This document shows, piece by piece, positions 28,899 through 59,400 of a stretch of DNA of 64,000 bases. The notes below the pieces were generated by a model. It ran no database searches, was not told where the DNA came from, and was given only the letters and a program-made list of their open reading frames with translations. Numbering within the stretch: the stretch's first letter is position 1; every line of letters begins with the position of its first letter. The stretch lies in the NCBI RefSeq assembly GCF_050320075.1, contig NZ_CP190022.1. One strand, written 5' to 3'. The translations under genes were made by a program, and so were the position numbers. The stretch comes from Escherichia coli (GTDB lineage Bacteria; Pseudomonadota; Gammaproteobacteria; Enterobacterales; Enterobacteriaceae).

Positions 28899-29354
28899 AT
28901 GCGAGATAAATCAGAAGTATTAACCGGAGCGCAGAAAAACAGATTTGGTCTGATTCTTTATATTATACTATTATCAGTTGTTTATATATTGATAACAAGA
29001 CTTAATCTCACAACCACATATTATTCGCTGTATTCATCTCTGGATGAGAATTCACAGGTGACGGAGTATTTTATAATATCCATAGCTACCTTTCTTTTTC
29101 TGGCGGCTTTATGTTTGTTCTTCATTTATTCTTTCTTTAAACGGAAAAGAGTTGTCGGGAAATTACTTCTGTGTATTTATATTCTTTATATATCACACTA
29201 TGCTATCACTTTTGTTTATTGTCTTTATGTTGTCGGTGCTGAGTGTATGGCAACCGGAAAGATTGAGCATATTTTGATTGATATTATTATAGCCATGCTT
29301 TCTCTTTCGTATGTTTGCCTTTCCGGGAGGGCAAGACATATTTTTGTTAACTAA
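28899..29354 (+). CDS. Hypothetical small integral membrane protein (151 aa, about 4 TM helices)
   Basis: Strongly hydrophobic, AT-rich codon usage; directly upstream of the transferase-like gene. Confidence 0.5.
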   Translation: MRDKSEVLTGAQKNRFGLILYIILLSVVYILITRLNLTTTYYSLYSSLDENSQVTEYFIISIATFLFLAALCLFFIYSFFKRKRVVGKLLLCIYILYISHYAITFVYCLYVVGAECMATGKIEHILIDIIIAMLSLSYVCLSGRARHIFVN

Positions 29355-54522: not shown

Positions 54523-54880
54523 GGTGTATTTTTCCTGAGCAGTGAAAGAAGAAAGCGTTGTGGGGAGGATTTACTGGTTCGTGTTTTTGCTGAATGGCTG
54601 GAACACCTCAGAGGGTGACAGTGCTACCCGGATACAAATATCGTTTGCTATCACGATATTACATTCGTTAGCTGTCGGATCCCGGAACGGTTCCACCATA
54701 AAGGCTTTGTTTTCGATATGCGTTTTATTTTTGTTAAACATGCATTTCCTCATGCGAAAATGATATGTCAGATAACAGCCAGATCAGAGGCAGCACTACA
54801 GGTCTGGCTGTGTCGTTTGATGGTCGGAAAACGCGAGGATGCAGGTCTGGATACCCCGGTCAGTACCGGGGCAGAGATGA

Positions 54881-56083
54881 TCAGAATGTGAACTGCAGTT
54901 GTGCAACGGCACCGTAGTTGTTGTCTGTGCCTGCTATACCCGCCACATCAATATGGACGACATCAAATGGTGAGATACCCAGCCCGGCGGTGAACGCACT
55001 GTCATCATTGCTGGCCAGATTCTGGCGGTAGCCTGCACGTAACTGTGCCCATTTCCAGGCATTAAATTCAGCACCAATGGCAGCAAACTGACGTTTACTG
55101 TCTGATGTGAAGCCACTGGCCGGGGTCAGGTCAACATCCAGTGCTGTAGTGAACATGTCGTTGTGCCAGGAGACACCGGCAGTCACCTGCGGGCGGATCC
55201 TGAAAGTTTCAGTGACACCATGTACCTCTTTGGTCTCAATGCTGCGTGGGATCAGGTTCTGTGCGACCAGACCCAGCGTCCAGTTGTCATCCAGGTCCAT
55301 GCTGGCACCGATATCAGCGTTAATACCGTTTTGGGTGTTGTGGTAACGGTTACCTTTGAATGCGCTGCTGTCATAGTTTTTGATCAGCGTATTGTAGTTA
55401 AACAGGTCAACACGCTGGAATTTTGGTGTGAAGCCCAGTGACCATTTTTGTCCGGCCGTTTCCAGTTCAGTGGCCAGCGCAACGCCCACATCGGTGATCA
55501 GTGCGGCACGGGCAAAAGCCTGTGAGGTCAGTCTGTTTTTATCCACATCCTGGCTGCCACTGTCTGCAATGCTTTCCAGATAGTTCAGGTCGGCATCGCT
55601 GACTTTACCGTCGACGCTGACAGTCCCGAACGTTTTCAGCATCAGTGCAGCAGCGAGGGTATCACCGGGAAGGGCCGCCACAGCAGATGTTCCCACCTGT
55701 GCGTCAGCATGCGTGTGACGGAAGTCCTGAAGTCGCGTCTTCAGACGTGCAGCAGTCTGCGACACGTTGCTCTGACTGTCGATGGCACGATCAAAGGCTT
55801 TCCAGTCATCGCTGATTTTGTCGGCGTTGTCGGCGATATTACCCGGATCGGACAGCTGCGCACCCACGGACGGAAGCAGAAGACTGAAGTCATCTTTTGC
55901 ACCGGATTTTGTCAGCAGTGCCGGGTTTGCCAGTGGGGCCACACCATAGTGAGAGGAGGCTACCCCGGTTCCCCCCATTGCATCATTGCGGGCTTCAAAA
56001 TATGAAGTTGCGGCTGTTGAATTAAAGGAAAATAAAACAGCAGATGCGATGAGAGTTCGGGTAATGTGCATATTCATCATCAT
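54881..56083 (-). CDS. Secreted outer-membrane beta-barrel-like protein of the transfer region (start at ATG 56083)
   Basis: AGGAAA RBS; signal peptide MMMNMHITRTLIASAVLFSFNSTAA; Gly/Ala/Thr-rich with C-terminal aromatic residue (QLQFTF) typical of OMPs; hairpin terminator just downstream (about 54853-54875). Confidence 0.55.
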   Translation of the reverse strand: MMMNMHITRTLIASAVLFSFNSTAATSYFEARNDAMGGTGVASSHYGVAPLANPALLTKSGAKDDFSLLLPSVGAQLSDPGNIADNADKISDDWKAFDRAIDSQSNVSQTAARLKTRLQDFRHTHADAQVGTSAVAALPGDTLAAALMLKTFGTVSVDGKVSDADLNYLESIADSGSQDVDKNRLTSQAFARAALITDVGVALATELETAGQKWSLGFTPKFQRVDLFNYNTLIKNYDSSAFKGNRYHNTQNGINADIGASMDLDDNWTLGLVAQNLIPRSIETKEVHGVTETFRIRPQVTAGVSWHNDMFTTALDVDLTPASGFTSDSKRQFAAIGAEFNAWKWAQLRAGYRQNLASNDDSAFTAGLGISPFDVVHIDVAGIAGTDNNYGAVAQLQFTF

Positions 56084-56172
56084 TTCAGTTTCCTGGTTTG
56101 AGGTGTTTTGGGTACAGCAACGGTATGACACGACTGTGCCATTAAAAATTTACTGGTTTTTTCTCTGCGTTA

Positions 56173-56994
56173 TTACCAGGGTAATAACGGTATACTGAAT
56201 AACTCAGCAGGTAATATTTTTCCTGTCATCAGATATTCTGCCTGTGCCGGACGAAGCGTTACGGTCCGGACGGATGTCTTTGCATATAAATTGCGGGCAG
56301 TGTGAAACCAGTTTTCTTTTTCCTTATTCATTCTTACAGGTGATAAAGAAAGTACAGGATAAATGATGGCTTTATTAATTTCTTTTTTCTTGCGGAACAG
56401 TACACCGCAATATTCCTGTGAATGAACACCGGCAAAAGGAAAACTGTGCCAGATAATAATATCCACATTATCGCTGGCTGAAATAAGCTGGCAGAACGCA
56501 TCCTGTGTTGCTGGCCACTCACCGGCACGGCTTAAAGGATAACGTACCCTGCCGTTCAGCCATTCCGGGTTGAGATAAAACCAGTCAGCCAGAGCAGTCA
56601 GAATCTCTCCTGTCAGATAATCTGCGAGTTTGTCCGGGTCACGGAAAACGGCAGGACGGATATTCCAGGGAGCCAGTAACGTTGTCATCGTTGTTACGCA
56701 GACATCATGTGCCTGCATGATGTGTTCTGTCCGGCAGATAAGACGGTGAACGATGTTTTCAGCCGGGAGAAACATTTCAGTTAATGCATCTTCGACCAGG
56801 ATACGCGTCAGGTCGGATACAGAAAGGGAGAGTTGCTCGCTCATTATTCCGAGTGCTTCTCTGACGCCCTGCGGATAACGGATCTGCAGGGGAGTGGACT
56901 GCAACTGGCGGTTATTGAGCAGAGCTTCGCTAATCCGGGCCCTGTCAATGGAGAGCATCATGCGGGCAGCAATGCCTGTGCTGTTTGGTTTCAT
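56173..56994 (-). CDS. Transfer-region protein of unknown function (273 aa)
   Basis: ORF in operon context between the rci side and the OMP gene. Confidence 0.45.
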   Translation of the reverse strand: MKPNSTGIAARMMLSIDRARISEALLNNRQLQSTPLQIRYPQGVREALGIMSEQLSLSVSDLTRILVEDALTEMFLPAENIVHRLICRTEHIMQAHDVCVTTMTTLLAPWNIRPAVFRDPDKLADYLTGEILTALADWFYLNPEWLNGRVRYPLSRAGEWPATQDAFCQLISASDNVDIIIWHSFPFAGVHSQEYCGVLFRKKKEINKAIIYPVLSLSPVRMNKEKENWFHTARNLYAKTSVRTVTLRPAQAEYLMTGKILPAELFSIPLLPW

Positions 56995-57244
56995 TTCACC
57001 TCCGTGCGGTTCATATGTTAAGTCTAAAGAGCGTGTTTACTGAACGGAAACGAGTTATTTCGATCGTTATGATCGAGTGTGTTTCAAGAGTGCTTTTAAC
57101 TCTGTTTTAAGCGTGAATGAAAAGGATTCGGACAGGACGTGATTTAGCATGCCGCTGGTCTGGCATTATGCTGCAGAGCAGACGGAGTCAGGAGATTGAA
57201 GGGCGGTACAGTCTGCGAAGACTGGACACGGGGTGTGTCGGGAA

Positions 57245-57790
57245 TTAACGCACGTGAGGCGTAATGAGAACGACGCGTTTTTCGCTAGCTCCACCTCCGG
57301 CGAATCCATTCATGACAAGGGACTGTTCCGGTCTGAGAGAAATGCTCTGCTCAACAGTCTGGTTTCGTTTCTGGTCTGTGGTCGAGAGTCGCAGAGTGAT
57401 ATTGCCCCCCTTAATATCCGGCGATATCTGCATTCTGACATCGGGGGATACATCAGCAGTAAAGGCATCCGGACCTACGGATGTTACCTGTGATTCAACA
57501 CAGGACGTATTCTGCATCATCCCGTGGAGCGTTTCAGGTGTCAGCGTCAGGCTGTCATTAAAAAAAGCACTGTGTGAAATGACCCCCTGAGCATCGGCAA
57601 ACAGGTCCGGATGGCGCTCATTAAGAAGGCTTCCGTATTTTTCCGCCAGGCAGATTGGGTTGCTGGCCGTTGTGTCTGTTCGCACGGTATCGACCGTGAA
57701 TGTCACCTGCGGGTGATGTTCCCTGTGGCCTGTGCAGCCGGACAGCAGTGCGGCGGCTATCGTCATCCAGAGTAGTGGTTGTTTTTTCAT
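57245..57790 (-). CDS. Lipoprotein of unknown function (181 aa)
   Basis: Lipobox MKKQPLLWMTIAAALLSGC. Confidence 0.5.
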   Translation of the reverse strand: MKKQPLLWMTIAAALLSGCTGHREHHPQVTFTVDTVRTDTTASNPICLAEKYGSLLNERHPDLFADAQGVISHSAFFNDSLTLTPETLHGMMQNTSCVESQVTSVGPDAFTADVSPDVRMQISPDIKGGNITLRLSTTDQKRNQTVEQSISLRPEQSLVMNGFAGGGASEKRVVLITPHVR

Positions 57791-57908
57791 GCTGTTAATT
57801 TCCTCTCAGGGTAAAAAGAAAGACTCGCACCGTCATGTCAATGGTAAGCGTACAGCCTGAACCGTCTGGTCAGAATCTGACGAATTAGACATAGGGGCAA
57901 ATCCATGT

Positions 57909-58190
57909 TTATTTTGCATCCATCATCTCGCCCATCAGCAGTCGGATACGCTGCCAGGTGTCATGATCCAGTACAGGTGATGGTATTACCATGCAAGCAC
58001 TGTGCCCGGTAGCGGCGGCAGAAAGCATGGCTTTAACTTCGTAGGCATTGCCAGTAAGGATAACCCTCCCCGTCAACCCCAACACTGAGTTGGCGTGAAT
58101 TGGTGGTGTGAATTCGATTTCGTTAATGTCCCGGCCAGTTAGGATGCGATTATTATCCGCATTGGCAGCACGGGAGGATACGTGTTTCAT
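57909..58190 (-). CDS. Hypothetical small protein (93 aa from ATG 58190)
   Basis: GAGG RBS 8 nt upstream of ATG 58190; no family recognised. Confidence 0.4.
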   Translation of the reverse strand: MKHVSSRAANADNNRILTGRDINEIEFTPPIHANSVLGLTGRVILTGNAYEVKAMLSAAATGHSACMVIPSPVLDHDTWQRIRLLMGEMMDAK

Positions 58191-58230
58191 AAAGAACCTC
58201 ATTGCGTTAATTTTGAACAAAATTGTTTGC

Positions 58231-59400
58231 TCAGCAAGGGGATGTGAGAATAGTGGTTGATTTTGTCATAAGCTGGTCGTTTGTTAACGGACAAATCATT
58301 ACCCGTTCATCAATGTTTGTAGGAAGTTCGCCAGGAGTTGGGACACGCTCTCCTCGCTGGGCGGCTTGTGCCAGTGTTCGTAGCAGCAACACGCTGGCAT
58401 GAAATATGGCCTGTTCTTTTGTGGCTGCGCTTGTTTCCAGGTCGAAATCACTCAGAGTCACAACGACTTGCCCGTTTCTGTTCTCGACCGTTGCCGGGTA
58501 GGGAACAAAATAGGGAGCGATTTTGCTGGTTTGCTTGCGTCGGGCATCGAGTTTACTGACAAGTTGATAAGCCCGAAGGTGTGTGTATCGTTTCAACATG
58601 TTCAGGGAGCGATGGCCTGAAATAGCGGCAACTTCAATGACGTTCAATGTACCAAGTTCGAAAAATCGGCTGATAGCCTCATGACGGAGGTCATGAAAAT
58701 GCAAGTTTTCTATATTCAGTTCCTGAAGTGCTGTTCGCCAGGCACTTTTGAATCCCGAAGATGTATAAGAAAAAATATTACCGTTAAGCTGTATTGGCAG
58801 CATTTGCAGGTAACTACGGGCTTTCCTGGATAGCGGAACATCGCGTGGAGCACCATTTTTGGTTGTTGGAAGATGAGCTACCCCATGTTGCAGATCGACG
58901 TGTTCCCAACGCAATGACAAGATTTCACCTTGTCGCATTGCTGTTTCCAGCGCCAGATGAAAAATGACGTAAAGAGCCTGATTTTTTTCTTTGAAATACC
59001 GCGAAAGTCGGCGTTCTTCTCCTGAAGTCAGGCGACGATCGCGCCCGCTACTGATTTTGGGTTTTCTGACCAGTTCGACAGGATTCATACGGCATGTTCC
59101 CCATTCCACACGGGCGATATTGAATAATGATGATAAAAGGGCAAGTTCAAGACGGACGGTATTTCCGGTGATTTGACGCCCTGTTCGTGGGTTAATTTGA
59201 GCTAAACGCTGATCCCGGTAACCGGCGATATCAATGGTAGTGATTTCATCCATATAGCGCTCGGCCATAGGGTGACGTTTAATCACATTGACGCGATAAA
59301 ACTCCTGCAGATGACCTTTTTTATGGACGGAAACGGTTTTCAGGTATTTGTCCAGCGCCCGGTTGAGAGTCATTTTGCGAATTTTGATTTTTCGAAACAT
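58231..59400 (-). CDS. rci: Shufflon-specific tyrosine recombinase Rci
   Basis: From ATG 59400: [34 protein letters not shown]... with integrase-family catalytic residues (R...HDLRH...Y); directly beside the shufflon repeats; track ORF has a 59-codon upstream extension. Confidence 0.9.

Follow-up and report, generated by a model that had tools for sequence, protein, structure and literature searches.

The interval examined here lies at positions 56,173 to 58,190 of a 64,000-nucleotide stretch of DNA from Escherichia coli (NCBI RefSeq assembly GCF_050320075.1, contig NZ_CP190022.1), hereafter the window, and falls between the pilV-shufflon-rci block and the transfer gene traF. Over the 2.3 kb queried around the interval, identity was 100% to the E. 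coli plasmid pPK8275-82kb and 99.9% to poultry IncK2 plasmids carrying blaCMY-2, and by sequence the plasmid is of the IncK2 type; the whole stretch was present in 58 PLSDB records and parts of it in 2291. A preliminary description of the window had reported three genes on the transfer-gene strand that it could not match to named functions, and had proposed that they may be lineage-specific components of the pilus or of mating-pair stabilisation. All three open reading frames (ORFs) were confirmed on the minus strand, and the same three coding sequences are annotated publicly in identical plasmids. Along the minus strand, pilV-shufflon-rci comes first and the three ORFs next, followed by traF, an ORF of 56 amino acids (aa), traH (DotD), traI (DotC), traJ (DotB-like ATPase) and traK. 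The features considered below are as follows.

58231-59400: rci, the upstream flank of the interval
57909-58190, minus strand: 93-aa ORF, ATG at 58190, Shine-Dalgarno sequence GAGG at 58197-58200, 40 bp downstream of rci
57844-57897, plus strand: remnant of an IS66-family terminal inverted repeat, 54 bp, abutting the lipoprotein cassette exactly
57201-57843, minus strand: lipoprotein cassette, 643 bp, with 54 bp of its own upstream and 44 bp of its own downstream sequence
57245-57790, minus strand: lipoprotein gene, 181 aa, ATG, Shine-Dalgarno sequence GAGAGGA
57087-57103, minus strand: inverted repeat AGAGT-N7-ACTCT, just upstream of the palindrome
57060-57076: palindrome TCGATC-N5-GATCGA, 66-82 bp upstream of the traE ATG, with a Dam site (GATC) in each arm; candidate operator or promoter element
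56173-56994, minus strand: traE orthologue, 273 aa, ATG, Shine-Dalgarno sequence GGAGG at 56999-57003
54881-56084/56131: traF, then traH, traI and traJ

None of the three proteins matched Pfam, NCBIfam or PHROGs at threshold. An Rfam scan of positions 55900-58400 found no RNA family, a scan for promoter and terminator consensus sequences returned sites no more numerous than in shuffled sequence, and the IncK2 literature that we examined contains no discussion of these three genes. The explanation that we favour, and consider rather probable as a whole, is that the rci-traF interval is a variable accessory head of the I-type transfer region, holding three unrelated things and not unknown core machinery: an autoregulator, TraE; a relocated lipoprotein that would be an accessory of a secretin; and a 93-aa ORF that evolves as though free of constraint.

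TraE and the palindrome upstream of its gene

The 273-aa protein is, on sequence and position, a straightforward syntenic orthologue of TraE of plasmid R64 (WP_001238939; 57% identity, 72% positives, E 1e-118, over 273 of 274 residues). Homology is full-length (273 versus 274 aa), and in both the IncK2 plasmid and R64 the gene heads the tra cluster, with rci on one side of it and traF on the other; the window protein differs in being a divergent allele of the IncK2/Z type. The preliminary description was thus mistaken in leaving this protein without a name, and the comparison with traE of reference IncI-type plasmids that it had itself proposed gave, for R64, the direct orthology that it had listed as evidence against its reading. 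Orthology to R64 names the gene without explaining its function, since R64 TraE has no assigned function, and the function of TraE has been stated to be unknown (PMC4027160). TraE homologues were found in 1913 plasmids and, at 28-37% identity, in elements of Citrobacter, Enterobacter, Pectobacterium and Pantoea and in metagenome contigs. In each context inspected, pilV or rci stands before them and traF-traH-traI-traJ after them, and traE is conserved wherever an I-type type IV secretion system (T4SS) is joined to a thin-pilus cluster. The ratio of non-synonymous to synonymous substitution rates (dN/dS) of traE, 0.19-0.21, indicates purifying selection.

No signal peptide or membrane segment was found in TraE. 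Three domains are predicted: a ribbon-helix-helix (RHH)-like segment at about residues 36-75, a Cro/C1-type helix-turn-helix (HTH) domain at about residues 77-146 and an alpha/beta C-terminal domain at about residues 160-273. An AlphaFold model built with 28 family members reached a mean predicted local distance difference test score (pLDDT) of 79.8, rising to about 90 over residues 80-150, and a predicted template modelling score (pTM) of 0.71; it matches Cro/C1-type HTH regulators, and the predicted domain has the five-helix HTH fold. When the family profile was searched against PDB sequences, the top match, which was non-significant (E 0.13), covered those residues and was to the HTH domain of phage TP901-1 CI. 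Among the 28 family members, sub-threshold Pfam matches were to RHH_3 (5 of 28), RHH_1, RHH_5, RelB and HTH_3, the last in one member only (E 0.089), and the RHH matches are consistent with the strand-helix-helix pattern at residues 36-75. Compared with the Cro/C1 (XRE) regulators phage TP901-1 CI, the BldD N-domain and C.AhdI, TraE differs in an unusually long loop between helices 2 and 3 that bears an invariant P-W-N-I-R motif, in the extra N-terminal RHH-like segment and in a C-terminal domain of about 110 aa without assignment.

Two results weigh against the HTH assignment. The window TraE itself has no Pfam or NCBIfam HTH match at threshold (the gathering scores of HTH_3 and HTH_31 were not reached), and hhalign of the TraE profile to the 434 repressor aligned the last helix only. 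Because the sequence models fall below threshold, the assignment draws mainly on the predicted structure. With this qualification, TraE is predicted to be a soluble, cytoplasmic, DNA-binding regulator and not a part of the pilus, and the role in the pilus or in mating-pair stabilisation suggested earlier is unlikely for a protein that has a predicted HTH domain and neither signal peptide nor membrane segment.

Seven lineages carry the palindrome TCGATC-N5-GATCGA, each locus having a single copy 82-103 bp upstream of traE: IncK2, IncZ, R64, Citrobacter, Pectobacterium and two metagenome contigs. Identity among their TraE proteins is 28-57%. Across these lineages all 12 arm positions are invariant, while the 5-position spacer takes six forms. 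The half-sites lie one helical turn apart, as expected of the site of a dimeric HTH protein, and the palindrome is probably the operator of TraE, so that traE would be autoregulated. A second copy with up to 2 mismatches was found neither in the 64-kb window nor in 26 kb of the remaining plasmid sequence, including the pil region; a wider TraE regulon was considered and rejected on this ground. What we propose is that TraE is a transcription factor with a Cro/C1-type HTH and probably an N-terminal ribbon-helix-helix as well, that its dimer would bind TCGATC-N5-GATCGA in its own promoter region, and that in this way, most likely by repression, it would autoregulate the traE-traF(-traG) unit, which is dispensable. 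What we propose on the HTH domain and the upstream palindrome applies equally to R64 TraE.

The palindrome also admits a different interpretation, in which it is a Dam-methylation-sensitive or SeqA-sensitive site, or a site for another host factor, that couples expression of traE-traF to replication or transfer, while the HTH of TraE acts elsewhere or TraE is no regulator at all. Each arm contains GATC, the two GATC sites keep a distance of 9 bp throughout the seven lineages and could serve Dam/SeqA or another regulator, and the pairing of TraE with the palindrome is one that we infer. Dam-dependent control of transfer genes is known in other plasmid families. The invariant block (TCGATC, GATCGAA), however, reaches beyond the GATC tetranucleotides, the centre-to-centre spacing of the half-sites, 11 bp, suits a dimeric HTH protein, and the site is found only beside traE, with which it has travelled across lineages at 28-57% protein identity. 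On balance we hold control by Dam, SeqA or a host factor to be improbable, and TraE to be the better candidate for the protein that binds the site.

Conservation of the rci-traE spacer is confined to the traE-proximal 120 bp or so, which carry both inverted repeats. The stem of the second repeat is kept by compensatory changes in R64 and Pectobacterium, where alignments show GGCGAGTT-N5-AACTCGCC and GTAGTC-N5-GACTAC, respectively. It is followed by no run of T residues, and it may form an RNA stem-loop or serve as a second operator.

Published transfer data bear on this proposal. R64 can transfer without the genes traEFG (PMC6112013, citing Komano 2000), and TraE, TraF and TraG were classed as non-essential for transfer of pESBL (PMC4288162). 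In a TraDIS screen (sequencing of the sites of transposon insertion) of pMS7163B, for whose transfer traE is likewise dispensable, insertions in traE raised transfer (log2 fold change +1.95, false discovery rate 2e-94; PMC10286972 S1 Table A), a value just below the cut-off for repressors used in that study (PMC10286972). The raised transfer fits a repressor role for TraE; against this, the value may reflect a polar effect, as the neighbouring pilO (+2.39) and pilU (+1.88) behave alike.

The lipoprotein: distribution, proposed relocation and weak resemblance to PilN

The 181-aa product carries a canonical lipoprotein signal, MKKQPLLWMTIAAALLSGC, with the lipobox L-S-G-C19. L16, S17, G18 and C19 are invariant across the family and agree with the lipobox pattern [LVI][ASTVI][GAS]C. 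The residue at position +2 is Thr and not Asp; under the Lol sorting rule, a +2 residue other than Asp is expected to lead to sorting to the outer membrane. Two further cysteines are invariant in the family and, together with the Thr at +2, suggest an outer-membrane-anchored, disulfide-bonded periplasmic protein. The gene is maintained, as its dN/dS of 0.33-0.36 shows, under purifying selection.

About 950 plasmids carry the lipoprotein, 473 of them in the 90-95% identity band. A 183-aa 'hypothetical protein' encoded between traC and pilI of IncIγ/K1-type plasmids is 91% identical to it, the context having been verified in two records. A homologue with 65% identity in pYZLc4-1_94k follows traC in the series TraD homologue, DUF7446 gene, lipoprotein, and the IncI2 homologue (211 aa, 43% identity) lies upstream of pilL and pilM. 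When 1.84 billion representative proteins were searched with the family profile, only two full-length clusters emerged, I-complex and IncI2; the sole match outside them (P0117, 1105 aa) was a low-complexity repeat protein and was discarded, so that a wider family was rejected. By sequence, the family is confined to plasmids with an R64-type thin-pilus (pil/shufflon) cluster. The preliminary description was right in matching this gene, which has neither a name nor a described function, to nothing known, and wrong that it is lineage-specific: only its position, not the gene, is specific to IncK2.

From its usual neighbourhood downstream of traC the gene might be taken for R64 traD. The two share that location but no sequence similarity (BLASTP E 66), and TraD and the lipoprotein coexist as separate genes in pYZLc4-1_94k, so this identification was rejected. 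In R64 itself, positions 29198-29287, just after traD, retain the final 44 bp of the lipoprotein gene together with 46 bp that lie downstream of it; because the 3' end persists, the gene was lost from the R64 lineage and not simply never present there. The traC-pilI interval is empty in pESBL. Since both R64 and pESBL lack the gene, the lipoprotein is dispensable.

In the window, homology to IncK1/Z relatives (pL2, 99.7%) ends at 57200, and the 643-bp cassette that begins there is 93% identical in nucleotides to NZ_CP040536.1 (locus L002, 5001-5653), where it lies between traC and pilI. The 54-bp remnant that abuts the other end of the cassette (GTAAGCGTACAGCC...) starts with GTAAGCG and is 93-96% identical to the ends of ISEc8-like IS66 elements that adjoin tnpA/tnpB in unrelated plasmids. 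The IS66 genes tnpA, tnpB and tnpC are absent and this end alone remains; the 93-aa ORF ends 11 bp beyond it. The junction between lipoprotein gene and insertion sequence was found only in 58 IncK2-type records, and no intact IS66 element, as a donor or intermediate would have, was found at it among plasmids. The traC-pilI interval of the IncK2 plasmid contains no annotated gene. We infer from these sequences that relocation was mediated by an IS66-family element. The usual arrangement is traC-[traD]-lipoprotein-pilI, upstream of the pil operon, and in an IncK2 ancestor the element would have moved the lipoprotein gene to the other end of the pil-shufflon-rci block, leaving the 54-bp scar.

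ISCro1, an IS66-family element, lies directly after pilI in pESBL2073-IncI (locus L018, 2898-4149), beside a lipoprotein gene in the usual position, and IS66-family elements thus visit this neighbourhood. In the IncIγ plasmid a direct repeat of about 50 bp occurs downstream of traC and downstream of the lipoprotein gene (L002, 5001-5050 and 5715-5764; window 57198-57247), flanking the cassette. This repeat holds two short stem-loops, for example at window positions 57206-57227.

Resemblance to PilN, the thin-pilus secretin, was assessed with hhalign on mature-protein sequences and profiles, with 150 shuffles and six unrelated plasmid proteins as controls. The mature lipoprotein profile aligned to the secretin domain of R64 PilN with a probability of 89.9% (P 1.7e-6, score 48.5); the shuffles gave a mean score of 14.2 and a maximum of 23.3, and the six unrelated proteins scored 10-23. 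Smith-Waterman alignments of the lipoprotein and PilN were collinear, both proteins ending in the terminal VVLITP(H/N) strand, and 3 of 11 family members gave sub-threshold matches to Pfam Secretin (PF00263; best E 0.0044), the window protein giving none. The alignment suggests that in its C-terminal half the lipoprotein resembles the C-terminal part of a secretin domain of the PilN type, or is derived from it. At one third of their size and without N0/N1 domains, it differs from the type IVb pilus secretins PilN (R64) and BfpB. It does not possess the gate, the N-domains and the length of at least 400 aa of a complete secretin and is not fileable as one, and because two segments of the secretin domain are missing it is not expected to form a channel. 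A precedent on the same kind of plasmid for a small lipoprotein made from a fragment of secretin architecture is DotD/TraH of the I-type T4SS; the neighbouring TraH matches Pfam DotD. DotD has a secretin N0-like fold, whereas the lipoprotein resembles the C-terminal secretin domain, and an hhalign control found no shared sequence similarity between the two.

Carriers of the lipoprotein include MPF_I (I-complex) and MPF_T (IncI2) plasmids as typed with MOB-suite, and pil genes are common to the loci inspected. Since the carriers share the thin pilus but differ in T4SS type, the partner of the lipoprotein would be the pilus rather than the T4SS. Part of the earlier proposal thus survives: a pilus role is plausible, given carriers limited to thin-pilus plasmids and the weak similarity to PilN. 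We suggest, with moderate confidence and from sequence comparison, that the protein serves the PilN complex as a small accessory derived from a secretin. It would face the periplasm, probably anchored in the outer membrane and containing a disulfide, as a non-essential accessory of the thin-pilus secretin complex.

Several results weigh against this suggestion. Similarity to the IncK2 plasmid's own PilN was weaker than to that of R64 (probability 12.9-59.5%), and about 17 and about 20 residues, corresponding to gate-forming segments, are missing relative to PilN in the aligned part. The AlphaFold model of the lipoprotein was of low confidence (pLDDT 63, pTM 0.61), Foldseek of that model against the PDB returned no secretin and only insignificant lectin-like matches, and hmmsearch against PDB sequences returned nothing. 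R64 and pESBL conjugate without the lipoprotein, which has no known phenotype. These results leave appreciable, if minor, weight for the view that the lipoprotein is cargo unrelated to conjugation, an envelope protein with a part in host fitness, exclusion or phage resistance, and that its likeness to secretins is an artefact of modelling or composition. Such cargo would also agree with the variation in presence and location of the gene among close plasmids and with the lack of a Pfam family at threshold or of any match in PHROGs, a search that did not extend to PADLOC. We consider it unlikely in view of the shuffle and unrelated-protein controls and of the confinement of the family to thin-pilus plasmids, and we retain the accessory of the PilN complex as the preferred reading.

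The 93-aa reading frame

The third ORF is 93 aa long from the ATG at 58190; a mechanical ORF from a TTG at 58220 has 103 aa, and PGAP annotations give 93 or 97 aa. It was found in 197 plasmids only, with 98-100% identity in IncK2, 85% in a few and 56-60% in IncB/O/K1/Z plasmids, and it is 60% identical to a 96-aa ORF beside rci in pL2. In six other contexts inspected it directly follows rci or pilV. Searches of Pfam, NCBIfam and PHROG gave no homologue or domain outside this plasmid group, and no export signal was found. The lineage-specificity proposed earlier therefore holds for this ORF, but it shows no sign of selection at the protein level: dN/dS is 0.87-1.19, and differences are spread evenly over the codon positions (20/21/19), with neither purifying selection nor an excess at third positions. 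Close pairs differ by 21 non-synonymous and 4 synonymous codon changes, the variable sites in the B/O/K1/Z group fall at the three codon positions as 3/7/1, and the frame is shifted in pHB42-5. In a neutral simulation the frame stayed open in 23% of trials, so that an open frame is weak evidence for coding. The coding status of this ORF is accordingly doubtful on sequence grounds: it follows rci, is common to IncB/O/K1/Z plasmids, evolves as if unconstrained and may encode no functional protein.

Some features count against this judgement and for a genuine, fast-evolving small protein, with conserved ends and a diversifying middle, linked to the function of rci and the shufflon. A Shine-Dalgarno sequence is present, the frame is open in 196 of the 197 plasmids, the single indel is in frame, the ORF stays beside rci or pilV in the six contexts mentioned, and its terminal segments have dN/dS values of 0.32 and 0.50 (small counts) against 1.19 in the middle. 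The overall dN/dS, the even codon positions, the ratio of 21 to 4 changes, the result of the neutral simulation, the one frameshifted plasmid and the lack of homologues beyond the plasmid group all point the other way. A real protein is a possibility that we take seriously, while regarding an ORF free of constraint as the likelier account.

A proposed variable accessory head of the I-type transfer region

The composition of the rci-traE spacer changes from one plasmid group to another. In R64 it comprises 150 bp without a gene, in IncB/O/K1/Z plasmids a 96-aa ORF and an opposite-strand ORF of 106-112 aa with hydrophobic stretches, in pSTEC636_2 about 1 kb of other sequence, and in Citrobacter-type elements an unrelated gene of 158-182 aa. 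Comparison of these loci shows that the rci-traE and traC-pilI intervals are hot spots for the swapping of small genes. The opposite-strand ORFs (L004, 6255-6575, plus strand; L003, 6269-6607, plus strand) fill the place of the lipoprotein cassette; they share 48% identity and match nothing in Pfam.

Between traF and traH, positions 54523-54880 of the window contain only a 56-aa hypothetical ORF (54571-54741), a gap that in R64 is occupied by traG (histidine phosphatase family); since no other ORF is present there, traG is absent from the IncK2 plasmid. TraF (54881-56131), which has 416 aa from a GTG in the ORF list and 400 aa in the annotation, gives a match to Pfam TraF_2 and a weak one (NCBIfam E 3.5e-12) to PorV/PorQ, a family of outer-membrane barrels of type IX secretion.

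The proposal that all three products are lineage-specific structural parts of the thin pilus or of mating-pair stabilisation can now be weighed as a whole. The three genes do share the tra/pil strand, with the pil-shufflon-rci block on one side of them and the T4SS genes on the other, the lipoprotein is targeted to the envelope and weakly secretin-like, traE directly follows the pil/shufflon block in every lineage inspected, and pCTX-M3, an I-type plasmid, lacks homologues of traEFG (PMC6112013), which we count in favour of structural parts. Set against these points, TraE has no export signal or membrane segment, its model matches a DNA-binding HTH and it is found in 1913 plasmids; the dispensability of traEFG for R64 transfer (PMC6112013) speaks in the same direction, as does the 93-aa ORF, with neither an export signal nor a signature of protein-level selection. 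R64 and pESBL, moreover, make pili and transfer without the lipoprotein. We judge a shared structural role to be very unlikely, and prefer to read the interval as an accessory head assembled from unrelated genes.

The practical impact of these findings is limited, because no system tested so far has needed any of these genes for transfer. One of three seemingly nameless genes proves simply to be traE, which removes a false mystery, and knowledge of the two swap hot spots is useful for plasmid typing and for reading annotations of a group that matters: IncK2 plasmids, like others of the I-complex, are major carriers of blaCMY-2 and of genes for ESBLs (extended-spectrum beta-lactamases) in poultry and humans. 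Two testable hypotheses emerge, namely that TraE and TCGATC-N5-GATCGA are a candidate regulator-operator pair, and that a small secretin-like lipoprotein travels with the thin-pilus genes. In their strongest joint form, with TraE an autoregulated RHH and HTH repressor acting at a palindrome of Dam sites and the lipoprotein a miniaturised paralogue of the secretin domain within or capping the PilN ring, these two linked leads are a long shot. If they held, a lipoprotein that inserts into or caps the PilN ring would represent a previously undescribed kind of secretin accessory, and TraE would tune the traE-traF(-traG) unit, and perhaps the frequency of transfer, in step with the plasmid's state of methylation or replication.

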